DNA of 64,000 bases from Pseudobdellovibrionaceae bacterium (GCA_021731025.1 JAKFYD010000011.1:1889-65888); one strand, 5' to 3'. Counted from the stretch's first letter, positions 47,437 through 64,000 are shown. The notes: generated from the sequence alone by a model not told the origin. Program-made: numbers and translations.

Positions 47437-48450
47437 TTAACTTGTTTTTCCTAGTGAAATTAAAAATGGATCTGCTTTTTGTCTTTCTGAAAAGTCATTT
47501 TTAGAATTGATATTGAGCCATTTGTTTTGCACCAGAATTTGGCCGATGGCTCCGCCCAAGGAATTTCCTGGGCCTAAGAGGATAACTCGATCTGGACAAA
47601 ATTCTTTTAAGCAGACAGTAATGGCCTGAGTGAAATTGTAAGGTTGAACCACTTGATGATCAAAAGTGTACTGGTAAATTTCTTCAAGATCAGTCGAGTA
47701 AGGAGACCAGATGTGCCCGCGGCCATCAATCAACGGGACCTGAGGTCGCTGAAATAAGTCCTTGGATAAAATTTCGAAAGCTTTTTGCGATGTTTGATGC
47801 AACAGAGGAGTGTGAAAGGCCGCGTGATTCACCAACTGAAAAGGATAGTTTTCTATTTTTGGCAAACGCTTCATCAGGGCTTCGAGAGCTTTTTGATTTC
47901 CACCGATAACAAGGTAACCACCGAGTTCAATCGAGATGTAAGCTTCGCAGTCCGCTTGTTGGTTCACTTCAAGAAGTGCATTTTCAGTAGATTGCACGCG
48001 GGCAAAATCTTTTTTCCACTGATCATCCAAGATAGGATAAATGATCTGCCCGCCGATAATTTTTTCTTTCATCATGGAGCCCATTGTATTGATCACTTCG
48101 AAAGCACCATGGACATCAAGAACTCCAGCGACGGCACAGGCAATGTACCAGCCCATGGAATTTCCCGTCACGGCCACAATTTCGTAGCGGTCGGGATCAA
48201 GGCTCATAAAATCAGCGTAACTGCAGGCGTAGATTAAGGCCGAAGCATTTTCGCCTTTGGTGTGCAGTTGAGGTTTAAAGACAGGCTCGTCATCCAACTG
48301 CGTGAGTGTAGGCTCGCCCAGGGCTAAGCGTTTTTCATCGAGAGTGTGAATGAACTCATTCTGCTGAGGACGATATTTTTTCAGATAACCTAAAGTTTCT
48401 TTGGTGTAGGTGCCCCGTCCTGGGCAAACGATGACGACTCGCTCTTTCAT
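47437..48450 (-). CDS. FabD-like acyltransferase (malonyl-CoA:ACP transacylase superfamily)
   Basis: Nucleophile elbow 'VTGNSMGWYIA' (GxSxG) and 'NHAAFHTPLL' (FabD-like His). Start at 'MKERVVIV' forms an ATGA overlap with the upstream stop. Confidence 0.6.
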   Translation of the reverse strand: MKERVVIVCPGRGTYTKETLGYLKKYRPQQNEFIHTLDEKRLALGEPTLTQLDDEPVFKPQLHTKGENASALIYACSYADFMSLDPDRYEIVAVTGNSMGWYIACAVAGVLDVHGAFEVINTMGSMMKEKIIGGQIIYPILDDQWKKDFARVQSTENALLEVNQQADCEAYISIELGGYLVIGGNQKALEALMKRLPKIENYPFQLVNHAAFHTPLLHQTSQKAFEILSKDLFQRPQVPLIDGRGHIWSPYSTDLEEIYQYTFDHQVVQPYNFTQAITVCLKEFCPDRVILLGPGNSLGGAIGQILVQNKWLNINSKNDFSERQKADPFLISLGKTS

Positions 48451-50666
48451 TTTTTCTCCGTATTTTTGCCAAGCAAGGATAAACAAGATTGGATGATATC
48501 GTCTCGCGAAGGAAGTCCTGCAGCTGCGGCTACTCCCAGTGTAATAAAGCAATCGTGCGCGGCCAACACTTTGATGTTTGGGATCTTTGCGCTATTTTCA
48601 ACGATCATCGTAACAAGAGCTTCACTGAGAGAACCTGACTTTCGACATTCGTCGACGATCAGAATATTTTTATCGTGTTGAATTTCTTTCATCAGAGATT
48701 CAGTTGGTAAAGGCGAAATCCACCGCAGATCAATGATCTTGCAATTCACGCCGTGCTTTTCGCGCAGAATTTTTTCGGCTTGGCGGGAAAAATAATAACC
48801 ATTTCCATAGGTTAGAATGGTTAAATCTTTCCCCTGACCATGAACACCAAATTCACCGAAGGAAATTTCTTCTTCAGGTTGTGGATAAGCAGAACTCCAT
48901 TCTTTGTCGCCCTCTTGATGGAGATCCTTCGTCATGTAAAGAGCAATGGGCTCGACAAAGACAATCACGCGACCTTCTTCATAAGCCTTGCGCACGCAGG
49001 CTCTCATCATTTTTACAGCGTCAGCGCCATTAGATGGGACGGCGAGGATAACTCCGGGGATATCTCGAAAGATGGCCAAAGAATTATCATTGTGAAAGTG
49101 ACCACCGAAACCTTTTTGATAAGGCAATCCAGCGATGCGGATCACCATGGGATTCGTGAATTGGCCTTGAGAGAAAAAAGCCAAGGTTGCGGCTTCGCCA
49201 CGAATTTGATCTTCGGCATTGTGAACATAAGCTAAGAATTGAATTTCGGGAATGGGAAGAAAACCATTGTGACTTAAACCAATCGCTGTACCAAGAATAG
49301 ACTGTTCATCCAGCAAAGAATTGAAAACGCGTTTGGCGCCAAACTTGGAGTACAATCCTTCGGTCACATTGTAGACTCCGCCTTTTTGAGCAACGTCTTC
49401 ACCGAAGATCGCTGCATTTTTATAGCGCAATAAAATATCCGTGAGACCGTAGTTGATCAGTTTGGCCATATGTTGCGGAGTTTTCAAACGAGCGTACTCA
49501 CGATCAAAAGTTTTTTCGCGCAAATTTTCTTCAGGTAAATCGGGTGCTGTTTTCATTTGAGTGCAAGCCGTTACAGCGCTGCGGATGTCTTCGGGCTTCA
49601 AAAGCTTCGGTCGATGAATCACGTACTGACCCACATGCTGAATACGACTGCGCGTTTGTTCGTAGAGTTTTAAAATTTCTTCAGCGGAGAGAATGGAATT
49701 CTCGATCAACAAGCGGGCAGAATGTAACAGAGGATCATTGAACTCTAGCGCTTCGATTTTTGCGAGAGTGTGATAATTGAATTCCATATCCGAGCCGGCA
49801 TGTCCTAACAGGCGCACTGTTTCCATATGAAGGAACACAGGCCGACGTCTTTGACGAACGTACTCTTCGGCGCTTTTTGTTTGCACGTAGAGATCAATCA
49901 GATTTAAACCATCGCCTTTAAAGTATTTCAGGCCAGGTCGATTTGAAAAATTATTTTGAATCCATCCAGAGGGTGTTGAAACCGAAATGCCAATTCCATT
50001 GTCTTCGCAAATAAAAGCCAAAGGCATTCTGACATTTTGATAGGCGGTCCATGCGGCGGCATTGATTGCACCAAGGGATGTCGAGTGATTGGCTGAAGCA
50101 TCTCCAAAGGTGCAAAGAACGACACTGTCATCAGCCATCACGGAATTCAGTCCCAGGTCTTTTGCTTTTTGAATTGAAAGAGCTGCGCCCATGGCCTTCG
50201 GCAAATGAGAAGCAATTGTGCTGGTTTGTGGGGGGACCATTAAAGGAAGGCTGCCAAAAACTTTATGTCGCCCACCCGCAATAGGATCTTCGCTGGAGGC
50301 CACGAAAGAAAGCATGGTGTCGTAAATCGACGTCGATCCAGGAAGTTGCTTCGCCCGTTCCAGCATTAAAGCCCCACTGCGGTAATGCAGAAAAGCCATA
50401 TCGTCGAGACGAAAGACATTTCCAAAGACCGCGTTTCCTTCATGTCCCGAACTTCCAATCGTGTAAAAACAGAGATTGGAGTTCTTTAAAATGCGAGCGC
50501 GTAGATCCAAATGGCGACTGGCCACTTGGCTTTCAAATAATTGCACCAGGCGACTAGGACTTAAGCCTGAACCTTCTAAAGAAGTGGGGGTGCGGGCCGG
50601 GGGGAATTTTCCTGTTGAAACGAATTGAGTGAAATTCTGATCAACGACTTCAGCGCGATTATACAT
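48447..50666 (-). CDS. fused alpha/beta E1 component of a thiamine-diphosphate 2-oxoacid dehydrogenase
   Basis: 739 aa. ThDP motif 'FGDASANHS...ICEDNGIGIS' in the N-terminal half. The C-terminal half is transketolase-pyrimidine/E1-beta-like ('FGEDVAQKGGVYNVT', 'FNSLLDEQSILG'). Confidence 0.8.
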   Translation of the reverse strand: MYNRAEVVDQNFTQFVSTGKFPPARTPTSLEGSGLSPSRLVQLFESQVASRHLDLRARILKNSNLCFYTIGSSGHEGNAVFGNVFRLDDMAFLHYRSGALMLERAKQLPGSTSIYDTMLSFVASSEDPIAGGRHKVFGSLPLMVPPQTSTIASHLPKAMGAALSIQKAKDLGLNSVMADDSVVLCTFGDASANHSTSLGAINAAAWTAYQNVRMPLAFICEDNGIGISVSTPSGWIQNNFSNRPGLKYFKGDGLNLIDLYVQTKSAEEYVRQRRRPVFLHMETVRLLGHAGSDMEFNYHTLAKIEALEFNDPLLHSARLLIENSILSAEEILKLYEQTRSRIQHVGQYVIHRPKLLKPEDIRSAVTACTQMKTAPDLPEENLREKTFDREYARLKTPQHMAKLINYGLTDILLRYKNAAIFGEDVAQKGGVYNVTEGLYSKFGAKRVFNSLLDEQSILGTAIGLSHNGFLPIPEIQFLAYVHNAEDQIRGEAATLAFFSQGQFTNPMVIRIAGLPYQKGFGGHFHNDNSLAIFRDIPGVILAVPSNGADAVKMMRACVRKAYEEGRVIVFVEPIALYMTKDLHQEGDKEWSSAYPQPEEEISFGEFGVHGQGKDLTILTYGNGYYFSRQAEKILREKHGVNCKIIDLRWISPLPTESLMKEIQHDKNILIVDECRKSGSLSEALVTMIVENSAKIPNIKVLAAHDCFITLGVAAAAGLPSRDDIIQSCLSLLGKNTEKK

Positions 50667-50774: not shown

Positions 50775-51947
50775 ATGGCCAGTTACGAATCTTTAAACTA
50801 CATGGAAGAGGACTCGCTCTTTACTGAAGACGAGCTCATGGTAAGAAAAACAGTCCGGGACTTTGTCACTGCCGAAGTCATGCCCACTCTTCAAGAGGCG
50901 AATCGCAAAGAAGAATTTCCTATGCACTTGATTCCTCGCTTTGCCGAAATGGGTTTACTGGGCTCGACGATTCAAGGTTACGATTGTCCAGGTCTGGGTC
51001 ATATAGCCTATGGTCTATTGATGCAGGAGCTTGAGCGGGCTGACTCTGGAATTCGCTCTTTCTGTTCCGTGCAAGGCGCCTTGGTGATGTATCCCATCTT
51101 TGCTTATGGTTCTGAAGAACAGAAAAAAAAGTATCTGCCGAAGTTAGCTAAAGGGGAATTGATTGGATGTTTTGGTCTGACTGAACCCGATGCGGGATCA
51201 AATCCTGGCGGCATGCTCACCCGCGCTGAAAAAGTAAAGGGCGGTTTTAAACTCAATGGAAATAAAATGTGGATCACGAACGGATGTATTTCTGACATCG
51301 CGGTTGTGTGGGCCAAATTGGATGGAGAAGTTCGTGGGTTCATCGTTGAAAAAGGAACAAAAGGTTTTTCAACGAGCACCATGAAAGGAAAATTTTCTCT
51401 GCGAGTGAGTGTCACTTCCGAGTTGCACATGCAAGACTGTGTTGTTCCCGAGGAGAATATGCTTCCTCACGGTGCGGGTCTAAGAGCTCCTTTGGGGTGT
51501 TTGACCCAAGCTCGATACGGAATTGCTTGGGGCGTGGTTGGCGCGGCGAATGCCTGTTACCACACGGCTCTGAACTACGCTAAAGATCGAGTGATCTTCG
51601 AAAAAAGTAAACCTCTTGCCGCCTATCAATTAGCTCAAGCAAAATTGGTGAAGATGGCTCAGGAAATTACCAAAGGCCAATTGCTGGCCATTCAAATGGG
51701 AAGATTGAAAGAGGCAGGACGAATTCAACCTCATCATGTTTCCCTGGGGAAAATGAACAACTGCCGTATGGCTTTAGATGTGGCCCGTGATGCTCGCGAT
51801 ATGTTGGGTGCCAATGGGATCATCGATGAATATCCTGTTATTCGTCATATGAACAATCTAGAGACTGTGAATACTTATGAAGGAACAGAAGATATTCACC
51901 GCTTAGTGGTGGGACAGCAGATCACTGGCATTCCAGCCTTCCGCTAA
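50775..51947 (+). CDS. gcdH: acyl-CoA dehydrogenase, glutaryl-CoA dehydrogenase-like
   Basis: 'GCFGLTEPDAGSNPG', 'GNKMWITNG', 'ARYGIAWGVVGAA', 'YEGTEDIHRLVVGQQITG'. 390 aa. Confidence 0.75.
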   Translation: MASYESLNYMEEDSLFTEDELMVRKTVRDFVTAEVMPTLQEANRKEEFPMHLIPRFAEMGLLGSTIQGYDCPGLGHIAYGLLMQELERADSGIRSFCSVQGALVMYPIFAYGSEEQKKKYLPKLAKGELIGCFGLTEPDAGSNPGGMLTRAEKVKGGFKLNGNKMWITNGCISDIAVVWAKLDGEVRGFIVEKGTKGFSTSTMKGKFSLRVSVTSELHMQDCVVPEENMLPHGAGLRAPLGCLTQARYGIAWGVVGAANACYHTALNYAKDRVIFEKSKPLAAYQLAQAKLVKMAQEITKGQLLAIQMGRLKEAGRIQPHHVSLGKMNNCRMALDVARDARDMLGANGIIDEYPVIRHMNNLETVNTYEGTEDIHRLVVGQQITGIPAFR

Positions 51948-51956
51948 ATTCAAGCC

Positions 51957-53228
51957 TCACTGTGTGAGGCTCATGATTCTTTCAAAATTAGCTTTATTCA
52001 TGGGGAACCATAGATTTCCCATGTGTCCACCGTAAGGGTAGAGGACAAAGCGTTCGTGCATTGTATTCTCTAAGAATTCAATATCTGCAGGGGTAACCAA
52101 AAAATCATCTTTGTTCGTAAGAACGAAGATATTTTTATTATTTTTAAGGGTTTCAGCCAATGAAGTGAAATTCGCTTCATTAAGTGCGATTTCCATTTCT
52201 TCTCGTGTTGGAGTTTCTCGATTTGGTTTTAGAGAAGGCGCTAAAAAGCGTATGAAGTACTCGCGGAAACCAAACTGGCGAGCCTCTTTCATGCGCTCAT
52301 TGAATCTGTAAGGTAATGCTTTTTTCTTTAAAAATCCCAAGTCTTTAACTTGTTGGCTGGCAAAAATAACTTCGCTCAAATTTATGCGAAAGCTCTCGCC
52401 AATGAGCCAACGGCATTCCGGATGAGTCAGATGGAGCTTTTGTGCGGCACCTGCGACTAACTTAAGATCAAAACCTTCGCCCTGAATCTGACTCGCAACT
52501 GTAACCAGGGCACCCATAATATCAGATCTTCTTTCGGGAGTAATATTTTTTACTTCAGCGAAATAGTTATCCAGAAGCATCATGCTGGATTTCAAATTGA
52601 AAGGTGGATTGATAATAATAACTTTGGCGAAATTAAAAACTTTTTGCTTTTCATCTTCACGAGCTAAAAATCCTGAAAGTAATCCACCGTAAGAATAACC
52701 GGCCACAGAGATATCTGTGAAATTCAAGCCCTGTTGTTTTTTAAGAAAGGAAGTTACTTTTTTCATGAACTCATAATACTCGGGAGCATCACGCAATGGA
52801 TTGCCAGGTAAAGCACTTTCACTGACGCCTAAAACGTAGTGCCAAGAGATGGGGTCAGGCAAAGTGACAGCATGATATCCTTGAAGATAAAGCTGGCTCG
52901 CTAAAAGCAGTGCGCTTCCGCTAAGAGCTGTTCCACCTGTTCCTGAAATGATAAAGGCTAAGGGTGCTTTTTTGTTTTTATGTTCGAACAAAGCCAAGGG
53001 TACGGCATTTCGTTTTTCAAGTAAGGGAACGTTCCGGCGATCTTTGCGAACTTCAATTTTAAGAGTCTCGTAAGAAGCTAAAGGAGTATTAGCAGCAGAA
53101 GAAATTGTTGAGACGTAATGATCCTTGATCGGGAATGGGTATTCGCTTTCTGGGATAATTGTTGCCCAGGCCAAGTTGGTCGTTGTGAGAGCTATGAAAA
53201 CTTTTATTAAAAACAATGGTAATCGCAT
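51957..53228 (-). CDS. secreted alpha/beta-hydrolase (putative lipase/esterase)
   Basis: Signal peptide 'MRLPLFLIKVFIALTTTNLAWA' and nucleophile elbow 'VAGYSYGGLL'. The ORF opens at 53276; the later Met was chosen. Confidence 0.5.
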   Translation of the reverse strand: MRLPLFLIKVFIALTTTNLAWATIIPESEYPFPIKDHYVSTISSAANTPLASYETLKIEVRKDRRNVPLLEKRNAVPLALFEHKNKKAPLAFIISGTGGTALSGSALLLASQLYLQGYHAVTLPDPISWHYVLGVSESALPGNPLRDAPEYYEFMKKVTSFLKKQQGLNFTDISVAGYSYGGLLSGFLAREDEKQKVFNFAKVIIINPPFNLKSSMMLLDNYFAEVKNITPERRSDIMGALVTVASQIQGEGFDLKLVAGAAQKLHLTHPECRWLIGESFRINLSEVIFASQQVKDLGFLKKKALPYRFNERMKEARQFGFREYFIRFLAPSLKPNRETPTREEMEIALNEANFTSLAETLKNNKNIFVLTNKDDFLVTPADIEFLENTMHERFVLYPYGGHMGNLWFPMNKANFERIMSLTQ

Positions 53229-53412
53229 TTGAGTGGAATCCTTTTGGCCGGAATATAGCTCACAGAAAATTTCCACACAATGGCAATCTCGAGGACCCTA
53301 AGAATGTGGAAATATTTTTACAATTCAACTCGAGATGTGATGTAAAAATGAAAGAATTTTGTAGTACCAACTTGGAACCATGCTTTTTCCGAGAGGAAAA
53401 AAGAGGTATCTC

Positions 53413-53869: not shown

Positions 53870-54790
53870 ATGACTCATTCCAATGTGCCTGCTGATGTTT
53901 TTGGAAGGTATTTTTTTATTTCTTTGGGTCTATTTCTTTCAGTCGTAACCATCGTGTTTCTGCTGATCAAAAAGAAAAAAGGAAATAGCCAACTCATCAA
54001 AGAAATTCTTATACGGATCTATTCTTGGTGGGCTATCAGTTTTATCTTTTTTGTGGCCTACAATTTTGATCGAGTTGGCTTCGCCGTTGTTTTTACTTTG
54101 ATAAGTTTGTTTGGCGTTCATGAAGTCTTTCGAATCCTTCGGCAAAGAATGAAATTCAGGAAAATTATTTACCTCATTTATTTTTTGATTCCTCTGCAAT
54201 ACTATTTGATTCTGAATGGCAGTGCCCATGCTTATTTAGCTTTTGTACCGATTGGTTCATTTATCATCTTGCCTTCATTCAGCATCTTCTTGCGTTCGTC
54301 AGAAAATTTCTTAAGTCAGGTTTCATCCATCCAGTGGTGTTTGATGATGACGATTTACTGTCTCAGTCATACGGTCATGCTTTCGAAATACAACAGTTCG
54401 GTGATTTTGTTGTTGTTTTTTCTGACTCAGTTGAATGACGTGGCTCAATTCACTTGGGGTAAAACTTTTGGTCGTCGAAAAATCATTCCCCATATGAGCC
54501 CGAACAAAACCTGGGAAGGACTTATCGGTGGAGCCCTCACTTTGGGAGTGGTCTCGGCCTTTTTAATGCCCATGGTTTTGCCGCTGTCTTATTTAGAAAG
54601 TTTTTTTGTGGGGCTATTTCTTTCGCCCCTGGGATTTTTTGGCGATGTTGTGTTGTCAGCCGTTAAAAGAGATTTTGGTGTGAAGGACTATGGCAGTTCT
54701 ATTCCTGGACATGGTGGTTTTATGGATCGCTTTGATAGTCTTACTTTTACGGCACCTGCTCTTTATTATTTTCTATTTTTAATCCTTTGA
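53870..54790 (+). CDS. phosphatidate cytidylyltransferase-family (CdsA-like) enzyme
   Basis: Family signature 'SAVKRDFGVKDYGSSIPGHGGFMDRFDS' near the C-terminus. Polytopic membrane protein. Confidence 0.85.
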   Translation: MTHSNVPADVFGRYFFISLGLFLSVVTIVFLLIKKKKGNSQLIKEILIRIYSWWAISFIFFVAYNFDRVGFAVVFTLISLFGVHEVFRILRQRMKFRKIIYLIYFLIPLQYYLILNGSAHAYLAFVPIGSFIILPSFSIFLRSSENFLSQVSSIQWCLMMTIYCLSHTVMLSKYNSSVILLLFFLTQLNDVAQFTWGKTFGRRKIIPHMSPNKTWEGLIGGALTLGVVSAFLMPMVLPLSYLESFFVGLFLSPLGFFGDVVLSAVKRDFGVKDYGSSIPGHGGFMDRFDSLTFTAPALYYFLFLIL

Positions 54791-55434
54791 TGGAGTGTAA
54801 AAAAATGAATGTTGTTCGTCGCCCCGTTAAATCCCGAGAGCAAGGTTGGTCAAAATCACTAGCGCAGAATCTTTACCGGATGGGTTTAAAGCCAAATTTT
54901 GTATCGGTGATGAGCTCTGTCTTTGCTGCGGGTGCGGGTTTCTGTATCTTTAAAAGTGGCCAGGGCTCGTTTTTTATTCTTCTTTCTTTGGTCTTTATTC
55001 AGATGAGATTGATCTGCAATCTCATCGATGGAATGTTGGCCATAGAGCATGGGCTTAAATCTAAAGTTGGTGAAATTTACAATGATCTTCCAGATCGCTT
55101 TTCTGACTTATTTATTATTGTTCCCTTAGGATATGCCATTGTCGAAAAAGCTTGGGCTCTGGAGCTGGCGTGGATTGCGGGAACTCTTGCCGTGTTAACG
55201 GCCTACGTGCGCATTTTGGGTGCGGTTGCGGGGGCTCCACAGTTTTTCATTGGGCCAATGGCAAAACAACATCGCATGGCTTTAATTAATTTAACGATGT
55301 TAGTGGCGTTAATTGAATACAATATGAGCTCTACCATCGTTCAATCATTTTTTTGGTGCTTAATCATTCTTGCTTTTGGTTCTTTAATAACTGTCGTGCG
55401 AAGGCTCAGAATCATCTTTAAAGCCCTCACCTAA
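54790..55434 (+). CDS. CDP-alcohol phosphatidyltransferase-family enzyme
   Basis: 'NLIDGMLAIEHGLKSKVGEIYNDLPDRFSD' matches the DG..A...G...D...D family motif, with Ile in place of the usual Arg. The ATG overlaps the upstream TGA (TGATG). Confidence 0.75.
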   Translation: MECKKMNVVRRPVKSREQGWSKSLAQNLYRMGLKPNFVSVMSSVFAAGAGFCIFKSGQGSFFILLSLVFIQMRLICNLIDGMLAIEHGLKSKVGEIYNDLPDRFSDLFIIVPLGYAIVEKAWALELAWIAGTLAVLTAYVRILGAVAGAPQFFIGPMAKQHRMALINLTMLVALIEYNMSSTIVQSFFWCLIILAFGSLITVVRRLRIIFKALT

Positions 55435-55437
55435 CTT

Positions 55438-56535
55438 TTATTCCTTTTCAAAAATATGAAATTTATAAACACCGGTGCCGTCAATTTGGTGTGCCCATGA
55501 TTCCTTTGTTGCCAATTGAGTCCAACCCTTGTGATCAATGGCAGTTGGCGCACGCATGAAAGAACGGATAACAACTCGGGAAGTTTTTTTTGTTTCAGGG
55601 TGAAGCTTCTGTAGAATCTGATTCGCAGCTTCTGTTGGCAAATACGAGATCGTGTCTGAAAGAGAGATGAACTGAAAAGGTTTGGTCGGTAAAATATCTA
55701 AAAGATTTCCAACATGATAGTGAATCTGGGTAGAAGATTTTTTACTTTCATGAAATATTTTGTCGTGGGCCTCTAAGGGAAGACCCTCTTCGTAGCGAAT
55801 TTCTCCAAGAAAAAGAATCTGCATAAAATAATTTTTTCGCACAAGTTGATTTTTGAAAATGCGTTCGAACTCTTCTTGAATAAATTGGTAAGGCGGGCGA
55901 TCTTCAGTTCGGTGATGAGCTTGCCCGCTAAAATGACCTTTGTAGAGATACTTATTAAAAACATACTCGCTAGCTAAAATTCTTAAAAATGATTTCCAAC
56001 GAAGGTGAGGCCAATGTTTTTCATAGAGGGAAATTTGTTCCCTTAAATTTTGCGCTTTGAAAAGAAACGAAAAATCACATTGAAGATAATCGCGGAAGAT
56101 AAGGCCAAGCTTTTGAAAGTGAGATTCCCAACGGCCCAACAAAATAAAACCTTGTTTTTCCCAGCCTTCCTTTCGGTCTTGCCAATAGGCTTTCGTTTCA
56201 GGTTTCAATTGAATCTTTTGAAAAATTTCCGAACGTGAATCACCAGCATCAGATCCGCCTTGAGTGGCGCCACGGTAGCCAAAGAAAAATAACCACTGTT
56301 GATAGCTCAATTGGCGCATGGCTTCGAATCTAAGCTCACAGAGGTGAATCTGTGCGGGACTCATGTCGATGATGTGCAGTTCGCGAGGATTTCGTGCGAT
56401 CAGAGGTAAACAGCGTGCCCCAGATCCAGCGATGCTAAATATGCAATCGGCTTGATTGGGAAGGAGTTCGTGTTCCACACGAGTGTCTTCGTTGGCCAGT
56501 GTGTAATTTAAATCTGAAAAATACTCTTGAGCCAT
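55438..56535 (-). CDS. BtaA-like (DUF3419) putative SAM-dependent 3-amino-3-carboxypropyl transferase
   Basis: 'YFSDLNYTLANEDTRVEHELL' and 'IFSIAGSGARCLPLIA' (SAM-binding-like). Start set at 'MAQEYF', with GGAGGAA SD, 1 nt after the upstream stop. Confidence 0.6.
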   Translation of the reverse strand: MAQEYFSDLNYTLANEDTRVEHELLPNQADCIFSIAGSGARCLPLIARNPRELHIIDMSPAQIHLCELRFEAMRQLSYQQWLFFFGYRGATQGGSDAGDSRSEIFQKIQLKPETKAYWQDRKEGWEKQGFILLGRWESHFQKLGLIFRDYLQCDFSFLFKAQNLREQISLYEKHWPHLRWKSFLRILASEYVFNKYLYKGHFSGQAHHRTEDRPPYQFIQEEFERIFKNQLVRKNYFMQILFLGEIRYEEGLPLEAHDKIFHESKKSSTQIHYHVGNLLDILPTKPFQFISLSDTISYLPTEAANQILQKLHPETKKTSRVVIRSFMRAPTAIDHKGWTQLATKESWAHQIDGTGVYKFHIFEKE

Positions 56536-56536
56536 A

Positions 56537-57625
56537 TTATTTTCCTCCTCTGAAAGATCCACTGTATTGGAATCTAAATCCAAACAAGGTTCCCCCGGTG
56601 TTTTGTTCAATAATCGATGCGTAATTAAAATTTTCGCCGTGATAATTTTGCAGCAACAGAGTTAAACCCCAGTTGCGCAGCCAGGTGTAAGTGTAAGTGG
56701 CGCTGTAAAAGACATTTGTATAATCTTTGTTAGAGAAATTCTGCCATTGGAACTCGTGGCGACCACGAGAATAAGTTGCAGATAAATATCCCACGAGCTG
56801 GCTGGAATCAGGTGAGGAAAGATTTTCGTTACTAAATCCTGTCACCTGAGGAGTGATGGTCCATTGATCCCAGAAAATATCTAATCCAAAAGTACTGAAT
56901 GCGGATCGACGGCTCAGAAGGGCATCGTTTTTTTGTTCATTAATTGTTCCACCAACTTCGATTTTTGGAACAAATTTTTCAAAAGCATAGTTGGCACTAA
57001 AGCCAAAAGTGTTTTGGCGAAGTGCGCGCGCGGCAACAAAGGAAGACTGTATGCCTCCCAAAGCCATTTTGATTCTCATTCCAGGATTCACGGCTTCTTC
57101 TTCGGCTATTTTTTCAAGAATGGGATAAGGTGCGGGGTAGGTATCCTGAGGAACCTCCCACATTGCAGCGAGATCCATCGACCATGTCGAACCAACAAAG
57201 GTAAAAACGGCACCGGTCGAATGAGCTAATTGAAATGGAAGAGGATCAATAAATAATCTTTCATAGCGGCGGGCGGTCCACACATCCAGCGAAGGGGTAA
57301 TCCAAGAGTCACTCCAGCGATTGGCTTGTCGTCCCAGTTTGAAGTAAATCGAATTCCCCGCATATTCTCCGTAGAGTTCTTGCAGATAGGCTGCGTTTTT
57401 CGAGCGCCGCCAAGTTTTCTGTTCTTCAGGGGCAAAATCAGCGTCCGCGAAACCATCTGCAAAAAATTTAAATTTTTGGGTCTGAAGGGAAAGATCTGTT
57501 TGCAGCAAAGTTCTGTTGAATGAAATTTCTTTGCCGCTGATAAGATCATAACGAGGGTTGATATTAAAGTCGATGGCCCATGCCGAATTCACTTGGACTA
57601 AAATCAGCAGGATCCAGGTTCGCAT
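56537..57625 (-). CDS. outer-membrane beta-barrel protein (unknown family)
   Basis: Signal peptide 'MRTWILLILVQVNSAWA'. Aromatic-rich alternating strands ('YSATYTYTWLRNWGLTLLLQNY', 'LFGFRFQYSG'). Abuts the LolA-like gene with no gap. Confidence 0.55.
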   Translation of the reverse strand: MRTWILLILVQVNSAWAIDFNINPRYDLISGKEISFNRTLLQTDLSLQTQKFKFFADGFADADFAPEEQKTWRRSKNAAYLQELYGEYAGNSIYFKLGRQANRWSDSWITPSLDVWTARRYERLFIDPLPFQLAHSTGAVFTFVGSTWSMDLAAMWEVPQDTYPAPYPILEKIAEEEAVNPGMRIKMALGGIQSSFVAARALRQNTFGFSANYAFEKFVPKIEVGGTINEQKNDALLSRRSAFSTFGLDIFWDQWTITPQVTGFSNENLSSPDSSQLVGYLSATYSRGRHEFQWQNFSNKDYTNVFYSATYTYTWLRNWGLTLLLQNYHGENFNYASIIEQNTGGTLFGFRFQYSGSFRGGK

Positions 57626-58315
57626 TTATTTGAGTGACTCCATATTTCTAACGCTGAAGAAAGAATCTTCAAAAGATTTTGGTGTCATACTGAGAATTTT
57701 AACCTGTGATTTTTTTTTATTTGTGTCTTCAATACGTATCAAGGTCGGCCGCACATCTCCGGCAATCTGTTTGTAATTTTCAAAGTAGGCTTTTTTCAAC
57801 AAAGTTTTTCCATTAAGCCCTAGGTATTCTGTGCGTAAAGGACGATTCGTTTTTTTATCAATCCATAGACGGATCCAAGAGTAAGTTAAATTTTCTTTGT
57901 TGGCTTTTAAGAGCAGCTGCGCCTCTTCGGGAGTTTCCTTCTCGAGTGTGGGGGTGTAGTCACCGTGCCAACGTGTTCGTGAAATATCCCCATTGGCAAC
58001 TTGACCTGACAGTTTTTGGGCCAAGGATAAGCGCATAGATCTTTTTAGGTTCGGGATATATGCTTGAAAGTCCCGGTCGAGCATCAGCATATTGCGTCCA
58101 CGGTCACGGGCTGGTGATTTGGTGACGATAATAGTTTTATCCTGACCCTTCATATAAACTTCAAATTCCATGGCATCACCATCGCCTTCAACCTCGACGT
58201 TCATCACGTAGGATTGTGCGGGATTTCTAATTTCATCAGCTTTTTTAAGAAGTGCTTCGGGATTTGTGGCTGCGTGCAGTGGCAAAGCGAACAACAGTAA
58301 AAAAACGAATTTCAT
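57626..58315 (-). CDS. LolA-like 'outer membrane lipoprotein-sorting' periplasmic protein
   Basis: Signal peptide. 'ALLKKADEIRNP...KSPARDRGRNMLMLDRDFQAYIPNLKRSMRLS' is typical of the LolA_like family found next to FtsX-type ABC exporters. Confidence 0.6.
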   Translation of the reverse strand: MKFVFLLLFALPLHAATNPEALLKKADEIRNPAQSYVMNVEVEGDGDAMEFEVYMKGQDKTIIVTKSPARDRGRNMLMLDRDFQAYIPNLKRSMRLSLAQKLSGQVANGDISRTRWHGDYTPTLEKETPEEAQLLLKANKENLTYSWIRLWIDKKTNRPLRTEYLGLNGKTLLKKAYFENYKQIAGDVRPTLIRIEDTNKKKSQVKILSMTPKSFEDSFFSVRNMESLK

Positions 58316-58353: not shown

Positions 58354-59028
58354 ATGGATTTACTTTATAAGTTAGAATCAATTCAGTACAGCTATGTTTG
58401 GAATCAACAGCAGATTTCTGTTCTAAAGGGCATTTCTTTAGACATACCCCGCGGGTCATTCACCTGTTTGGTGGGTCCGAGTGGTGTGGGAAAAACCACT
58501 CTGTTGAATTTAATGGGTGTCATTGAGAACCCGACCAAGGGCCGTTTGATTTTCTGTGATCAGTCGATTGCTGAATTGAATGAAAAAGAAAAAGAAAATA
58601 TCCGTTTAAAAAATATCGGTTTCGTTTTTCAAGCCTTCTATTTGATTCCCACGCTGACAGTGCTTGAAAACGCTTCTTACTTTCTTCCCTCATTGGGAAT
58701 GGACCGAAAAAAAGCGGATCAGTGGGCCAGCGAAATTTTAGACCTTTTAGGTTTAGCAGATCAGCGCCATAAAAAACCTCTCGAACTTTCAGGAGGTCAG
58801 CGTCAGCGGGTGGCGATCGCTCGTGCTATGGCTAAACGTCCAAAAGTTATTTTGGCTGATGAGCCAACAGCAAATTTGGATTCTGTGACTGCTGACAAAA
58901 CGATTGCGGCTTTTAAAGAATTGCAACGGGTGGAAAATACCAGTTTTATTTTTGCGACCCATGATTCTCATTTGGTGGGTTATGCAAAGAATGTTTTAAA
59001 AATGAAAGATGGATTGATTTATGAATGA
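58354..59028 (+). CDS. ABC transporter ATP-binding protein (LolD/MacB-type)
   Basis: Walker A 'GPSGVGKTT', signature 'LSGGQRQRVAIARA', Walker B 'ILADEPT'. Confidence 0.9.
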   Translation: MDLLYKLESIQYSYVWNQQQISVLKGISLDIPRGSFTCLVGPSGVGKTTLLNLMGVIENPTKGRLIFCDQSIAELNEKEKENIRLKNIGFVFQAFYLIPTLTVLENASYFLPSLGMDRKKADQWASEILDLLGLADQRHKKPLELSGGQRQRVAIARAMAKRPKVILADEPTANLDSVTADKTIAAFKELQRVENTSFIFATHDSHLVGYAKNVLKMKDGLIYE

Positions 59029-60226
59029 TCTTTTAAAACTCTCTTGGCGAAATCTTTTTCGTAATCCACGCCGAACATTGGCTAGTTTGATCACCGTGGG
59101 ACTTGGTGCTGCGGGCTTATTAATTTATCAAGGTTTTAACACGGGCATTATGAACCAGTATCGAGAAAATACAATTCACGGTCACTACGGCTATGGCCAG
59201 GTGTTTCCCAAAGGTTATCATGGAAAAGTTTTAGAAAAACCTTGGGAAGCATGGATCACTAATTGGACTGAGGTTGAAAAGCAATTGAAGTCAGTGTCTG
59301 CGATCAATGAAGTCTTTCCCCGGGTCACATTTTATTCTTTCTTAGTTAAAGGTGGAGTGACCTTAGGTGGAAAAGGCGATGGCATTATTCCTGAACGTGA
59401 GAATAAATTTTTTAATCAGCTGAACTTTATTGCGGGTGGAGATATTCAAGGTGATGATGAAGTGATTCTCGGAAAAGGTTTAGCAGAAAGTTTAGATGCT
59501 AAAGTCGGCGAAACGATTACTCTTTTATCTCAGACAATTAACGGACAATTGAATGGAGTTGATGCAAAAGTTGCTGGAGTTTTCCATATTGGAATCAAAA
59601 AAGTTGATGACACTTATTTCCGTTTAAATTTAAAAGCGGCCCAAGGTTTACTGAACACCGACCGCATCGAATCTTTTTCGCTGGATACGAAAGGGGTCGA
59701 ATACTGGGATGAAGTGGCCCAGGGTATTGTCGAAAAAAATCCTAATCTAGAGCCCATTCGATTTGAAATTTTGGATAAAGTCTACTACCAAAATTCCGTC
59801 GATTTTTTGGCCGCGCAATTTGCTTTTATTCGTTCGATCATTTTGCTGATTGTGGCTTTAGGAATTTTTAACACCATCGCAGTGGGATTGTTGGAAAGAG
59901 GAGGCGAGGTCGGAGCCTTGCGTGCGAACGGTGAAAGCCGGTCCCGTCTATTTAAGATTTTTATGTTTGAAAGTGCTTTCGTTGGTGTCCTTGGTGGAAT
60001 GTTGGGTGTGGTGATTGCTTTTATTATGTGGGGAATGTTGTCCAAAGGAATTCCCATGCCTCCGGGACCGGGGATCACTCGTCAGTATCTTATATTTCTT
60101 GAAATTAAACCTTCGCACTTGATACAGGCTTTACTCTTGCCGGCGATTGCGGCCGTTGTTTCAAGCTTGTGGCCTATCTATAAACTTTTAAGAAAAAGCA
60201 TTCCTGAATTATTACGAACGACTTGA
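59021..60226 (+). CDS. FtsX-family ABC permease (LolC/E- or MacB-like)
   Basis: N-terminal TM, ~230 aa periplasmic domain and a C-terminal 3-TM FtsX module ('ALGIFNTIAVGLLERGGEVGALRANGESR'). Overlaps the ATPase gene by 8 nt. Confidence 0.8.
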   Translation: MNDLLKLSWRNLFRNPRRTLASLITVGLGAAGLLIYQGFNTGIMNQYRENTIHGHYGYGQVFPKGYHGKVLEKPWEAWITNWTEVEKQLKSVSAINEVFPRVTFYSFLVKGGVTLGGKGDGIIPERENKFFNQLNFIAGGDIQGDDEVILGKGLAESLDAKVGETITLLSQTINGQLNGVDAKVAGVFHIGIKKVDDTYFRLNLKAAQGLLNTDRIESFSLDTKGVEYWDEVAQGIVEKNPNLEPIRFEILDKVYYQNSVDFLAAQFAFIRSIILLIVALGIFNTIAVGLLERGGEVGALRANGESRSRLFKIFMFESAFVGVLGGMLGVVIAFIMWGMLSKGIPMPPGPGITRQYLIFLEIKPSHLIQALLLPAIAAVVSSLWPIYKLLRKSIPELLRTT

Positions 60227-62350
60227 TCGACGGGATAAAGCTAACTCTCGAGTCAGTGCAATCTCGCGGTCAGTGAGTGTTCCCATATGACCTTGAATGC
60301 TAGCAAGTTTAACACCGTGTTTTTGAGAGAGCTTGTAAATTTCTTTTACCTTTGTCCATTCGATATCTCGACCCATGGTGAAGCTTTCATGCTTTTCTTC
60401 CAGAGCTAAAACAGTGGTTTCTGCAAGACAGGCGTAGACGGTATTGCCCGGCAAACCAATATCGCAGGTCAACTGATAGGGACCAGGAAGAACAAGCTCG
60501 CCCGATTCCATAATGATAACATCGGGGCGTTTCTTGGCATCTTCCTTTGTAAAATCTAAAGGTCGCGAGCAGTCGCAGACAACACAACCTGGTTTTAAGC
60601 GCATCACATCGATGATTTTTTGATCGAAGGCCGAGGTTGCGGTAACTAAGACATCAGCCATCGACGCAAACTCATTCGCATCGGTACAACAAATAATTTC
60701 GCAATGAGGAGCCATTTTTTGCAATTCGGCTTTTAACTCTTGGAGCTTTTCGAGGCGTGGCGAAACTAAAATCAATTTATTAAAAACTAAGCTCAATAGT
60801 TTTGCGGAAACTTTTCCGATCGAACCCGAAGCGCCAATCACCATGGCTGTGCCAATAGCTTTTCCTGTTTGAGAGTCCGTTTTAAGAAGGCGCATTTTCT
60901 GAACGACATCGTAGAGTCCCCACAATGTGGCTGAGGCGCTTAAACTATTTCCGGTGGTGACGGGCAATGGAGAATTTTTATTGATCGTCACACCAGAGTC
61001 GCCGACAACTTTGGTGTAGGCACCAAGACCAATAATCTGAGCCCCACGTGCAGCGGCATCGTTACAGCACTTTTGAATTTGGGCATAGGTGATTTCGGGA
61101 TCCATGGATTTTAAAACTTTGGGTGTTGACCATAAAGCATAAATAATTCCATTGACCTCTTTGCCTGTGGCTGGCGAAACGACATTTTTAACATGACCCA
61201 AGATGAGCGGGGGTAAACGGGAAATTGTTTTATCAACTTCATCGTTCCATTGCTTTGGAAGGGCACGAATCATTTGACCCACAACGGGAACTCTTTCGAA
61301 GTCCCGGTGGGATAAAGCGTGAACAACAAAGGCAAAATCAGGTGTCGTTTCACGAATGATGCGATTTTTAATTTTGTAAAAGGTGCGGGCGGCTTTGACC
61401 TGCATGGAATCTTTACGTGGTAAAGTGTATTTGCGCACGATAGACATGGTCTCTGGCGAAATTTTCAAAAAATCTTTCCACTCTTCAAAAGAGAGACTGG
61501 CTTCCATCTTATGTGCTAGCCGAAAAGCTGCTTCCAGGACGCTGTAGTTCATATAATGACTGAATTGGTAAGCACTGGGAAAAAGATTATGGATAGCTTT
61601 GAACTCATATCTTTTTAAATATTTTTCGATTCCAATATGATGAGACCAAACGATAAGCTCTTTATCTTTAAAAATTTTACTGACGTCATTGAAGTAAGCG
61701 ATGTGAGCCAAATCAGCTACAATGTAGCGAGAAGATTTTATTTGGGATGCCAGAACTTTTTGGGTCATCTCTTGAAGTGGGAGGTTCAGGTTGGAAGTAC
61801 CACCTTTGATTTTCTTCACCGTTGCAATATTTAAACCTGTTTTGGCCAAAGTCATTAAGCCCAAGAAGGGTTTTAAAACTAAGGGTATACCCAAAATAGA
61901 ATAGAGGTCTCCAAATGAAACTTGAGCCTCGGGTGTATTTCGAATGAGCTCTTCCAGCTCGGTGTTTAAAAGAACCGTTGGGAAAAAAAATCCGTCTTTG
62001 GCTACTAATTTTTTTGTTTCCAAGGCCGACATTAAATTTTTAATGTTTAGAATTTCTCTTAAGCCAGTTCCATCACAAAGAGGGACAGAAGAAGGTGTAT
62101 TCATAATTTCAAAATACTGACGATGAACAAAGCTTTGATTCCCAAGACAAATAGGTGGCGGCAAGGAGACCAGAGCAAAAGCATCCACTTCACTGCGCAA
62201 ATTTCCGATGAGGGTTTTGACGGCATCTACAGAATAATTAGCGCCGTAGCGTTGCACTTGAAAGGTGAACCCTTTGTACTGAAATTCATAGCTTGTATCC
62301 CAATGGGAATAACCAAAGCTAATTTCGGCGATGCGATAGGTATTTTTCAT
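60212..62350 (-). CDS. two-domain protein: unknown ~335 aa N-terminal domain fused to a long-chain acyl-ACP reductase (AAR)-like NAD(P)-binding domain
   Basis: The C-terminal half is colinear with cyanobacterial AAR as I recall it: 'FAFVVHALS', 'GLGAYTKV', 'TTGNSLSAS', 'VIGASGSIGK', 'VYACLAETTVLALEE' (Cys at nt 60428-60430) and 'FTMGRDIEW'. Start at ATG 62350 (GGAG upstream); the ORF opens at 62374. Confidence 0.6.
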   Translation of the reverse strand: MKNTYRIAEISFGYSHWDTSYEFQYKGFTFQVQRYGANYSVDAVKTLIGNLRSEVDAFALVSLPPPICLGNQSFVHRQYFEIMNTPSSVPLCDGTGLREILNIKNLMSALETKKLVAKDGFFFPTVLLNTELEELIRNTPEAQVSFGDLYSILGIPLVLKPFLGLMTLAKTGLNIATVKKIKGGTSNLNLPLQEMTQKVLASQIKSSRYIVADLAHIAYFNDVSKIFKDKELIVWSHHIGIEKYLKRYEFKAIHNLFPSAYQFSHYMNYSVLEAAFRLAHKMEASLSFEEWKDFLKISPETMSIVRKYTLPRKDSMQVKAARTFYKIKNRIIRETTPDFAFVVHALSHRDFERVPVVGQMIRALPKQWNDEVDKTISRLPPLILGHVKNVVSPATGKEVNGIIYALWSTPKVLKSMDPEITYAQIQKCCNDAAARGAQIIGLGAYTKVVGDSGVTINKNSPLPVTTGNSLSASATLWGLYDVVQKMRLLKTDSQTGKAIGTAMVIGASGSIGKVSAKLLSLVFNKLILVSPRLEKLQELKAELQKMAPHCEIICCTDANEFASMADVLVTATSAFDQKIIDVMRLKPGCVVCDCSRPLDFTKEDAKKRPDVIIMESGELVLPGPYQLTCDIGLPGNTVYACLAETTVLALEEKHESFTMGRDIEWTKVKEIYKLSQKHGVKLASIQGHMGTLTDREIALTRELALSRRSSRS

Positions 62351-63344
62351 ATCCACTCCAAAAAGCTTTTTCATATTCCATAAATTCAGGGCACCAGTTC
62401 TGGCCTAAAATCTTTCGCGTATCTTCACTGTTATATCGGGGAAGTTGCAGAGCATAGCGAAGCTGCTCTTCAGGAAAGCCTAAAGCATATTGACTTAACT
62501 TGGTCACAATCGCTTGGGGAATTTTACGAACAAGAACAAGTCGAGAATGACGAATTTGAAAGTGTCTTAAAGTTGAAAGATAGAGGTCTTCCACCTTAAG
62601 TCCTTCTTTGGGAACTATATGAAAGCTCTTGTATCCCTGTTCTGAAGATTCGATGGCCCATTTTGTTAAGTTCACTAAAGCTTCAGCGGCCTTGTCGACA
62701 GGAACGAGAGGCAAGTGCACATCGCGATTACCGGGAACGGGCAATGGGAGTTTCCAGGCCTCGATAAATTTTTTGAGTCGAGAAAAAACATCAGCTGTAT
62801 GATAAGGACCATCAATTCGAGAGATCTTTCCATTGGTGGAATCGCCAACTAAAATTCCTAAACGTAAATTGATTTTAAGACGCAATGGACCTAACCAATT
62901 TAAAATTTGTTGTTCAGCGAGAGCTTTGCTTTCCGCATAAGGATCGTGAAATTTGCGAGAAAAATCGATCTCGTAAGGATTAACTTCGGCGTGAGACAAA
63001 TTTGTTGCAGCAGCTATGGAGCTTGTATTCACAAAGACAGGAATTTTGAGTAAAGAAGCAATTCGTAAGGCGGTGCCTGTGCCAGTGACATTGTTCATGA
63101 GGACATCTTCACGTGAGGCCGACAGATCATAAAGGCCTGCAAGATGCAGAAAGGCATCGTAATTTTTTTCGGAAAGTTCACTTAAGTTTATTCCACCATC
63201 CCACTTTGTCAAATCTCCAGTGACGTCAGCCTTTGGTGAGCGAGAAATAACATCGATATCAGCCTCGTTATGAAACAACTCTTGAACGACTTTTCCTAAA
63301 AATCCGGTCCCGCCGGTCATAAGGATTTTGTAAGTTCTTTTCAT
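62319..63344 (-). CDS. extended SDR / NAD-dependent epimerase-dehydratase-type reductase (thioester-reductase-like)
   Basis: 'ILMTGGTGFLGKVV' Rossmann motif and 'YAESK' catalytic YxxxK. 341 aa. Confidence 0.75.
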   Translation of the reverse strand: MKRTYKILMTGGTGFLGKVVQELFHNEADIDVISRSPKADVTGDLTKWDGGINLSELSEKNYDAFLHLAGLYDLSASREDVLMNNVTGTGTALRIASLLKIPVFVNTSSIAAATNLSHAEVNPYEIDFSRKFHDPYAESKALAEQQILNWLGPLRLKINLRLGILVGDSTNGKISRIDGPYHTADVFSRLKKFIEAWKLPLPVPGNRDVHLPLVPVDKAAEALVNLTKWAIESSEQGYKSFHIVPKEGLKVEDLYLSTLRHFQIRHSRLVLVRKIPQAIVTKLSQYALGFPEEQLRYALQLPRYNSEDTRKILGQNWCPEFMEYEKAFWSGYEKYLSHRRN

Positions 63345-64000
63345 TCACGCACCATGATGGTTAAGGCTTGAGGAAGACAACGAATTGAAATTTCATCAGC
63401 TTCGCGAAATAAAATTTCGCCGTCGCCGAAGAAGGTGATTTTTCTTTGAGGGTTTTTTGAGCGCAATGTCATTTCTGGGACTTCGTACGATTTAACAATA
63501 TCACTCTCGGCGAGATTCCCTTGATAGACCTTTGCAACTTCCATCAACTGGGACAATCGTGTGGTGCTTTCGATAAGAAGCAAATTGATCAAACCATCAT
63601 TATTTGAAGTGTAAGGAGCCGTTAAAAAGTTTTTTCCCAAGTAGGGTTGGTTGTTGATCAGAATAAAGGGAGCAATGGTTGTTATTTTTTTTCCATCTTT
63701 GAATTCCAAATCAAGATGCCAGCCGCTTTGTTCCCAAACTCTCAGTGTCTCAAGCAACATCGCAATGTAAACAAATGATCCCAATTTTCTCACGATTCCG
63801 TAAGAAACCTGGGAAGCGATTTGTGCGAAGGAAGATCTATTTTGATCGGCTGATAAATTCTGCAGAAACGAACGAAGTTTGTTAGCTTTATCCGCGGTCT
63901 CTGCAGGAACTCCTAAGCCCCCGTTCGTGAGCATGTATTTTTTGGTAGTTCCTGAGGTGACCTCGATGATATCAATCTTTTTCTCCTTACCTTCCAGGAT
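63341..64000 (-). CDS. DAG-kinase/YegS/LCB5-family lipid kinase, C-terminal part (5' end beyond the window)
   Basis: The frame stays open to nt 64000 ('ILEGKEKKIDIIEVTSGTTKKYMLTNGGLGVPAETA...'). This matches the 'vD.g.vn..yF.n.agiGfda' region of DAGK-family accessory domains. 4 nt ATGA overlap with the SDR gene. Confidence 0.55.
   Translation of the reverse strand: MLEGKEKKIDIIEVTSGTTKKYMLTNGGLGVPAETADKANKLRSFLQNLSADQNRSSFAQIASQVSYGIVRKLGSFVYIAMLLETLRVWEQSGWHLDLEFKDGKKITTIAPFILINNQPYLGKNFLTAPYTSNNDGLINLLLIESTTRLSQLMEVAKVYQGNLAESDIVKSYEVPEMTLRSKNPQRKITFFGDGEILFREADEISIRCLPQALTIMVRE

Follow-up and report, generated by a model that had tools for sequence, protein, structure and literature searches.

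We examined a 64,000-nt stretch of DNA from a Pseudobdellovibrionaceae bacterium (GCA_021731025.1 JAKFYD010000011.1:1889-65888). The whole stretch is called the window here, and all coordinates are counted along it. Close to its end, a minus-strand gene encodes a partner domain followed by a thioester-reductase domain resembling acyl-acyl carrier protein reductase (AAR), and genes for lipid enzymes and lipid exporters lie around it (Table 1). The open reading frame (ORF) is intact and spans 60212..62374, which gives 720 aa when counted from the first ATG. We regard the ATG at 62350 as the better start because all full-length homologs begin with MKNTYRIAE, including the 712-aa database protein P0001, which is 100% identical to the window protein. 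A preliminary description of the window had drawn the gene with the same limits. Two numberings are used below, that of the 720-aa frame and that of the 712-aa protein (Cys649 of the former is Cys641 of the latter). Bdellovibrionota hold more than 119 full-length homologs of the fusion, each of about 710 aa.

Table 1. Fusion gene, its domains and key residues, and the neighboring lipid-cluster genes (window coordinates)
Feature	Position	Strand	Basis
Fusion gene, 712 aa plus stop; partner domain, then AAR-like thioester-reductase domain	60212..62350	-	ORF and starts of homologs
N-terminal partner domain, aa 1-335 of the 712-aa protein; family annotated "quinate 5-dehydrogenase"	61346..62350	-	Profile, AlphaFold2, Foldseek, hhalign
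C-terminal catalytic domain, aa 336-712; AAR/PigE-N-type (COG5322) thioester reductase	60215..61345	-	NCBIfam and PDB matches
Asp56 codon (VDAFAL), 93% of 80 superfamily sequences	62183..62185	-	Alignment
Gly94 codon (CDG), pairs with the TTG Gly of the AAR fold	62069..62071	-	Alignments
Asp148 codon (FGD), 100% conserved, end of strand 144-146	61907..61909	-	Alignments, AlphaFold2 model; position rule from the TAD paper
Lys230 codon (KDK), 99% of superfamily	61661..61663	-	Alignment
VTTGNS, Thr-Thr-Gly motif where the two lobes join, positions the catalytic Cys	60944..60961	-	Alignment; role from TAD/AAR structures
GASGSIGK, NAD(P)-binding Gly-rich loop, aa 514-521 of the 720-aa frame	60812..60835	-	Alignment
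Cys649 (720-aa frame; Cys641 of 712), TGT codon, aligned to AAR Cys294 (acyl-enzyme nucleophile)	60428..60430	-	HMMER and 36-sequence alignment
Extended short-chain dehydrogenase/reductase (SDR), NAD_binding_4/thioester-reductase type, GGTGFLG and YAESK	62319..63344	-	Pfam/NCBIfam, motifs
YegS/DAGK_cat-family lipid kinase, C-terminal part only in the window	63341..64000	-	Pfam/NCBIfam
ABC ATPase, LolCDE/MacB-like	58354-59028	+	Pfam on 67-68% identical L001 orthologs
MacB_PCD/FtsX permease, LolCDE/MacB-like	59021-60226	+	Pfam on 67-68% identical L001 orthologs
LolA-like periplasmic carrier (PF17131)	57626..58315	-	Pfam; ortholog in L001
362-aa protein, no family match, signal-peptide-like N-terminus	56537..57625	-	35% identical ortholog in L001, inside the B. 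bacteriovorus cluster
DUF3419 protein, BtaA/BTA1 betaine-lipid-synthase family	55438..56610	-	Pfam E 1.5e-59; orthologs in L001 and L007

The C-terminal half is homologous to AAR-type reductases over its whole length. The NCBIfam PigE model NF053554 (positions 2-348) matched aa 347-703 of the protein with an E value of 4.5e-48 and 164 bits, short of the equivalog cut-off of 850 set for a model that also spans the transaminase half of PigE. The cyanobacterial AAR equivalog TIGR04058 was matched over positions 35-335 of 339 (E = 3.1e-15), with 56.4 bits against a curated cut-off of 449.7. Searches of PDB sequences gave the same ranking, with PigE (4ppm) at an E value of 3.5e-25 and the Synechococcus elongatus AAR (6jzq) at 1.9e-10. 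HMMER paired aa 384-689 with residues 34-335 of the S. elongatus enzyme, and the identity to AAR was 24% over 324 columns in an alignment of 36 diverse AAR-like halves plus AAR. The preliminary description had recognized this half as AAR-like and had called for alignment to a characterized AAR. The comparison bore it out: the GASGSIGK loop and the Cys of YAC were found exactly where it had placed them, the Cys aligned with Cys294, GASGSIG paired with the AAR loop GATGDIG, and VTTGNS paired with FTTGNT. The TTG Gly, the three loop Gly residues, and the Glu after the Cys were kept in 34 to 36 of the 36 AAR-like halves. Five of the 36 carried Glu, Ser, or Thr at the position of the catalytic Cys in this alignment; they could be true variants without the Cys, or the alignment could be locally wrong.

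Full-length homology to the PigE reductase domain places the C-domain in the PigE/TamH/KecF-type COG5322 class, and on sequence comparison the thioester-reductase domain of the PigE type, rather than AAR proper, is its nearest relative. The preliminary description had presented an AAR-like domain outside cyanobacteria as a novelty. That point did not survive, as PigE-N matches better (164 versus 56 bits) and such COG5322/AAR-like domains are documented in PigE, TamH, KecF (PMC6498172), a Pseudomonas transaminase fusion (PMC10829540), and the TAD of nonribosomal peptide synthetases (NRPSs), whose structure resembles AAR (bioRxiv 10.1101/2024.10.28.620694). Grouping with shikimate/quinate dehydrogenases, which the preliminary description had named as a possible refutation, was not seen: the Pfam Shikimate_DH match was confined to the Rossmann stretch and stayed below threshold (E = 0.004), and we rejected that assignment for the C-domain. 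The pair of features expected of AroE/YdiB, a Shikimate_dh_N/Shikimate_DH match and a GxGxxG loop in the domain concerned, was likewise not found. Sequence similarity to TAD reached only an E value of 0.014, with weak matches to glutamyl-tRNA reductase (GluTR) models as well; TAD membership is further contradicted by the missing NRPS context and by Ser-Pro-Arg instead of Asp at the beta2 end of the C-domain.

Comparison with characterized systems shows where the window protein departs from them. PigE-N, from the prodigiosin MAP pathway, and its relatives TamH and KecF have the same active-site layout of Cys, TTG, and Gly-rich loop. These proteins are fused to a pyridoxal phosphate (PLP)-dependent transaminase and have no partner domain, whereas the window protein is fused to a paralog-like domain and, unlike PigE, has an SDR and a lipid kinase as neighbors; in split relatives from other phyla the transaminase is a separate gene. 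For the PigE reductase domain, experiments support reduction of an alkyl thioester, and yet no turnover was obtained with the purified protein, for which the authors suspected missing factors (PMC8341465). AAR (TIGR04058; 6jzq/6jzu) shares the Cys294 equivalent, TTGN, and GxxGxxG with the C-domain at about 24% identity, and its fold is the one on which each half of the window protein superposes best. AAR consists of one domain, and its N-terminal lobe binds aldehyde-deformylating oxygenase (ADO); the window protein, in contrast, has an extra 335-aa domain and no ADO partner in the 64 kb. TAD (PDB 9e4u) has the AAR-like two-domain fold with an invariant Cys beside the NAD site. Unlike the window protein, it ends NRPS modules and is NAD specific through an Asp at the beta2 end; it dimerizes via its N-terminal lobe and has been proposed to amidate its substrate, not to release an aldehyde. 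Streptomyces TabE, considered as a "novel AAR," was rejected because it belongs to the unrelated aldehyde dehydrogenase (ALDH) family.

The N-terminal half gave no match in Pfam and NCBIfam scans of residues 1-340. It is nevertheless a real domain, since it is conserved across the more than 119 full-length homologs and folds confidently in prediction (pLDDT, 87.8). An exhaustive search with a profile from a 35-sequence alignment retrieved 247 representative clusters, which contained fused proteins of ~670-830 aa and many stand-alone proteins of ~300 aa. The profile matched members of this family with E values of 1e-10 to 1e-23; for stand-alone members aligned over positions of about 6-300, the range was 1e-10 to 1e-19. 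Searching with a central stand-alone member yielded at least ~8,000 proteins, from Eremiobacterota/Vulcanimicrobiota, Armatimonadota, Actinobacteria, and other taxa. They are named "quinate 5-dehydrogenase" by NCBI and "hypothetical protein" by JGI. The preliminary description had called this half unrecognized, and had held that a known, annotated domain would count against its reading. Its first statement stands insofar as no Pfam or NCBIfam model covers the domain, and fails insofar as the domain belongs to a large, NCBI-named family with an AAR-like fold; its second is borne out only in part, as a name exists with no library model behind it.

That name appears to be a legacy one, given that ten stand-alone or distant members, when scanned against Pfam and NCBIfam, also showed no model for the partner domain. 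We found no support for action on quinate by the proteins so annotated, and a true shikimate/quinate dehydrogenase identity of the N-domain was rejected for want of both a Pfam match and a Gly-loop. When N-domain profiles were run against PDB sequences, one gave zero matches and another only noise. Stand-alone proteins are ~18-21% identical to the window N-domain. Four residues, Asp56, Gly94, Asp148, and Lys230, are invariant across the superfamily, and the window N-domain has all of them. It has lost the polar motifs GTDGD, TNTTT, and GRSFGTNV, which are strongly conserved in the stand-alone family.

To relate fused and stand-alone forms, we scored all fetched loci with purpose-built hidden Markov models (HMMs); 14 loci held a complete N-domain, of which 5 were fused and 9 split, and a single-protein scan for related loci gave 6 close loci. 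The N-domain HMM matched every one of the 14 at an E value of ≤1e-63. An AAR-like ORF, fused or separate, lay on the same strand in all 14 (14/14), and for 8 of the 9 split loci it was the immediate neighbor of the partner gene. In the exception, L006, only aminotransferase and SRPBCC genes separate the two. The AAR-like genes beside stand-alone N-domain genes encode 357 to 399 aa, have all catalytic motifs, and match the PigE and AAR models; GluTR models match these split-form proteins more strongly than they match the window C-domain. In L004 the partner and AAR-like genes share 4 nt, a sign that their translation may be coupled. Both gene orders occur among split loci, and in every fusion the partner domain is N-terminal.

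Fused and split forms are interleaved phylogenetically, which implies repeated fusion or fission. The fused protein P0225, for instance, is 56% identical to the stand-alone P0149 and only 19% identical to the window N-domain. Taken together, the linkages in these loci are Rosetta-stone evidence of the classic kind that the two proteins are partners both physically and functionally, and we consider it near-certain that the window gene is a fusion of two partners. With the window N-domain, the stand-alone "quinate 5-dehydrogenase" proteins share homology, the invariant Asp, Gly, Asp, and Lys, and the partnership with an AAR-like gene. The contexts differ: usually aminotransferase and SRPBCC genes for the stand-alone proteins, kinase and SDR genes in the window.

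A four-gene set recurs in Eremiobacterota/Vulcanimicrobiota, Armatimonadota, Actinobacteria, and a Synergistia-labelled metagenome-assembled genome. It consists of a class III aminotransferase, an SRPBCC (Polyketide_cyc2) protein, the AAR-like protein, and the "quinate 5-dehydrogenase," and was located at L004 3988-7921, L005 4096-7906, and L006 2609-6704, and also in L010-L014; in three loci it adjoins greA and lysS. By analogy with PigE, the set looks like a route from acyl thioester to amine built from separate genes. The reductase and its partner look like a portable aldehyde-generating module that has been attached to differing downstream enzymes.

The preliminary description had proposed structure prediction and a fold search for the N-terminal region, and these led back to AAR. 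AlphaFold2 modeled the window N-domain with a pLDDT of 87.8 and a pTM of 0.88 and a stand-alone member with values of 94.4 and 0.91. The top Foldseek match of the window N-domain in the PDB was AAR (6jzq_A; E = 1.1e-4; probability, 1.00), followed by a second AAR structure (6jzy) and then TAD. The stand-alone model also matched AAR with a probability of 1.00. Its top matches were all two-lobed proteins with an amino-acid-dehydrogenase-like domain and a Rossmann domain (malic enzyme, GluDH, FolD, DpaA, and AAR), among which AAR gave the best global superposition (TM-score of 0.50 versus 0.30-0.43 for other folds).

We also compared the two halves with each other by profile alignment. Shallow profiles built from Bdellovibrionota alone showed no similarity (hhalign probability, 0.2%). 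Diverse profiles, made from 80 N-domains and 36 AAR-like halves with strict trimming between the domains, gave a weak, colinear match over 266-285 columns (extended mode with -mact 0.05, and global mode; P = 7e-4). A reference-column version scored 35.9 (P = 3.9e-4), compared with 16 for reversed profiles and 18.1 ± 3.1 for 60 block-shuffled controls, whose maximum was 26.6, so that 0 of 60 reached the observed score. The alignment pairs VDAI.L.G of the N-domain with GA.IIGLGA of the C-domain, and tPV.DG..L with PVTTGNSL, the invariant Gly94 falling on the TTG Gly. The Gly-loop GASGSIG is paired with FFFP (SAxDRxG in stand-alone proteins) and YACLAE with nVlEA, where Ser or Asn replaces the Cys. 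The N-domain has neither the Cys nucleophile nor a Gly-rich dinucleotide loop. Most likely, it is an ancient paralog of its partner, strongly diverged and now devoid of both the thioester nucleophile and the canonical loop. The Asp at the beta2 end of TAD binds the adenosine ribose in an NAD-specific Rossmann fold (bioRxiv 10.1101/2024.10.28.620694). Asp148 takes the same position, and residual binding of an adenosine nucleotide by the N-domain through this residue is therefore possible by analogy.

The genes around the fusion point to lipids. The SDR gene shares 32 nt with the fusion gene and 4 nt with the lipid-kinase gene. We rejected the idea that the kinase gene is truncated, as its frame stays open up to the window edge; the full-length ortholog in L001 has DAGK_cat and YegS_C domains. 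The order kinase-SDR-reductase is kept in the window, in B. bacteriovorus, in an Oligoflexia genome, and beside P0134, a fused homolog from a marine metagenome that is 34% identical. A split locus, L002, has the order kinase, SDR, partner, AAR-like gene, with a kinase and an SDR 24-26% identical to those of the window. The preliminary description had named the SDR and the lipid kinase as companions and had argued for a lipid fate of the product; they are indeed conserved partners, and that fate is plausible. Its statement that no ADO lies nearby also agrees with our searches: tblastn of the 64 kb with a hand-entered ADO query sequence found none (best E = 3.1), and no neighboring gene had an ADO Pfam match. 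No PLP transaminase is fused or adjacent in the window, whereas Aminotran_3 is adjacent in split relatives L004-L006.

In B. bacteriovorus, eight orthologs of window genes form one co-directional block, in the order ABC ATPase, FtsX/MacB permease, lipid kinase, SDR, fusion, LolA-like protein, ~360-aa protein, and DUF3419 protein. The fusion ortholog there belongs to the WP_061833602 family. The DUF3419 family has been linked to the BTA1 betaine-lipid synthase (PMC10685587). The 362-aa protein may be the part of the export route that sits in the outer membrane. In the window, the ABC/FtsX pair has changed both place and direction relative to B. bacteriovorus, where it lies on the same strand and ahead of the kinase; here the FtsX and fusion genes overlap convergently by 15 nt at their 3' ends. 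Adjoining the kinase-SDR-reductase genes, three distant genomes, those of L001 (15026-22130), L007 (1-5588), and the P0134 contig, have a further set in common, comprising a PPDK_N/Rph/PEP-utilizing enzyme of ~890-910 aa, a UbiA-family prenyltransferase, and AMP-binding ligases. L001 and L007 also carry a Formyl_trans_N protein, and one L001 ligase is fused to an alpha/beta hydrolase. The shared set suggests a larger biosynthetic cluster; it lies beyond the window, which ends at the kinase.

Other genes of the window were also noted. The region from about 4000 to 35100 (+) is mostly a conserved cluster of ribosomal-protein, RNA-polymerase, and elongation-factor genes, judged by ORF size and order, with rpoB confirmed at 8891-13093. 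The lipid cluster therefore lies ~20 kb downstream of core housekeeping genes. A CdsA-type cytidylyltransferase gene (53870-54790, +) overlaps a CDP-alcohol phosphatidyltransferase gene (54787-55434, +). The best NCBIfam matches of the latter product, both below cut-off, were archaetidylinositol-phosphate synthase (E = 3.9e-21) and phosphatidylinositol-phosphate synthase (E = 2e-13), and the pair hints at inositol phospholipid synthesis in this genome. It does not adjoin the lipid cluster in B. bacteriovorus. A 739-aa protein (48447-50666, -) carries E1 alpha (E1_dh) and E1 beta (Transket_pyr and Transketolase_C) of a 2-oxoacid dehydrogenase in one chain, and its gene adjoins that of an acyl-CoA dehydrogenase (50775-51947, +). 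Also beside it are genes for a thioesterase-like DUF4442 protein (46943-47428) and a PLD-like protein of 674 aa (44861-46885). Four sizable minus-strand ORFs had no Pfam match: 35105-37078 (657 aa), 47437-48552 (371 aa), 51957-53276 (439 aa), and 56537-57625 (362 aa).

From the domain homologies, the conserved active-site motifs, the relationship of fused and split forms, the fold class of the N-domain, and the synteny, we infer a substrate, a direction of chemistry after the aldehyde, and a role for the N-domain as follows. We lean toward the reading that the gene unites the two subunits of a widespread two-component thioester reductase and feeds an aldehyde into a pathway to an exported lipid. 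Reductase chemistry is likely for the C-domain by analogy with its relatives; the role of the N-domain is uncertain. An acyl thioester, either acyl-ACP or acyl-CoA, would acylate Cys649 as in AAR, and NAD(P)H bound at GASGSIG would reduce the acyl-enzyme to release an aldehyde; NADPH is suggested by an Arg that follows strand beta2 (in LVSPR). The N-domain would be an obligate partner that does no reduction itself, pairing as a pseudo-dimer mate and helping to form or gate the path of substrate or product. Alternatively, it could dock the carrier or the next enzyme and hand over the product. From the aldehyde, the co-translated SDR would then make an alcohol, which the lipid kinase would convert to a phosphate ester. 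The BtaA-like enzyme would modify the product, and the LolCDE-like and LolA-like proteins would export it to the envelope, so that the predicted end product is an exported envelope lipid and not an alkane.

Several observations weigh against this scheme. The sequence homology of the two halves is weak, with an hhalign probability of 26-36%, and invisible with shallow profiles. TM-scores are low (0.38-0.50), and many two-lobed dehydrogenases match too; it is possible that the N- and C-domains share a fold class without specific paralogy. GTDGD, TNTTT, and GRSFGTNV of the stand-alone proteins resemble an active ligand-binding or catalytic site more than a passive scaffold. The fused homolog L009 and the split pair L003 are without kinase and SDR genes, and the downstream pathway is thus not universal. 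The SDR itself belongs to a thioester-reductase family and could be the enzyme that acts on the thioester.

In a different view, the N-domain is an independent nucleotide-dependent enzyme that binds NAD(H) or ADP and has a reaction of its own on the substrate it shares with the C-domain, such as preparation of the acyl substrate or further conversion of the aldehyde, which would make the protein truly bifunctional. The superfamily-wide invariance of Asp, Gly, Asp, and Lys fits such an enzyme, as do the very strongly kept polar motifs of the stand-alone family, the position of Asp148 at the beta2-end adenosine-ribose site of NAD-specific Rossmann folds, and a fold class made up of active dehydrogenases. 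We nevertheless hold it to be rather unlikely: the N-domain is without the Gly-rich dinucleotide loop and the Cys, neither library models nor solved relatives indicate a chemistry for it, and the loss of TDGD and TNTTT from the window N-domain suggests relaxed catalytic constraint in this lineage.

Doubt could instead fall on the C-domain, which might not be an aldehyde-forming fatty acyl reductase and might have another chemistry or substrate, such as terminal amidation as in TAD or reduction of an aminoacyl-tRNA as in GluTR. TAD does use the AAR fold for a different outcome; the C-domain matches TAD (E = 0.014) and GluTR models weakly, the latter more strongly in split-form partners; and in other phyla the pair adjoins a class III aminotransferase, like the GluTR/GSAM pair. 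This we judge improbable, however, as the C-domain is far closer to PigE-N, an alkyl thioester reductase, than to TAD or GluTR, an NRPS or peptidyl carrier protein context is absent, the neighbors are lipid enzymes and lipid exporters, and split pairs are accompanied by an SRPBCC hydrophobic-ligand protein. The reading of the preliminary description, a true AAR ortholog outside cyanobacteria fused to a wholly novel, unrelated domain, accords with the retained Cys and NADPH motifs, the full-length alignment, and an N-half that matches nothing in Pfam or NCBIfam. It is largely refuted by the 56 bits obtained against an AAR equivalog cut-off of 449.7, the better score of PigE-N, the missing ADO in 64 kb, and the membership of the N-half in a family of at least ~8,000 proteins with an AAR-like fold, and we give it very little credence.

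Our literature searches, which covered DUF3419 in Bdellovibrio, COG5322 in general, and "quinate 5-dehydrogenase" in connection with AAR, returned nothing on the partner family or the cluster. In the literature searched we found no description of the partnership between COG5322 reductases and the "quinate 5-dehydrogenase" family, of the likely origin of that family as a degenerate paralog, or of the kinase-SDR-reductase lipid cluster of Bdellovibrionota. A broader generalization can be offered tentatively: most non-cyanobacterial stand-alone AAR-like reductases may be obligate two-subunit enzymes with a paralog that has no Cys and no Gly-loop, and the Bdellovibrionota fusion may start a new pathway to an exported lipid.

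AAR-type reductases are of practical value for the production of fatty aldehydes, alcohols, amines, and alkanes, and the partner protein, fused here and encoded by an adjacent gene in thousands of genomes, would be an obvious candidate when a missing component of these enzymes is sought. If its proposed role is true, the widespread "quinate 5-dehydrogenase" misannotation would be corrected. Under the broader generalization, Bdellovibrionota would have a pathway from acyl thioester through aldehyde and alcohol to a phosphorylated or BtaA-modified lipid, exported to the outer membrane by the LolCDE-like/LolA-like system. For Bdellovibrio, the cluster of kinase, SDR, reductase, BtaA-like, LolA-like, and ABC exporter genes points to an uncharacterized exported envelope lipid in predatory bacteria.

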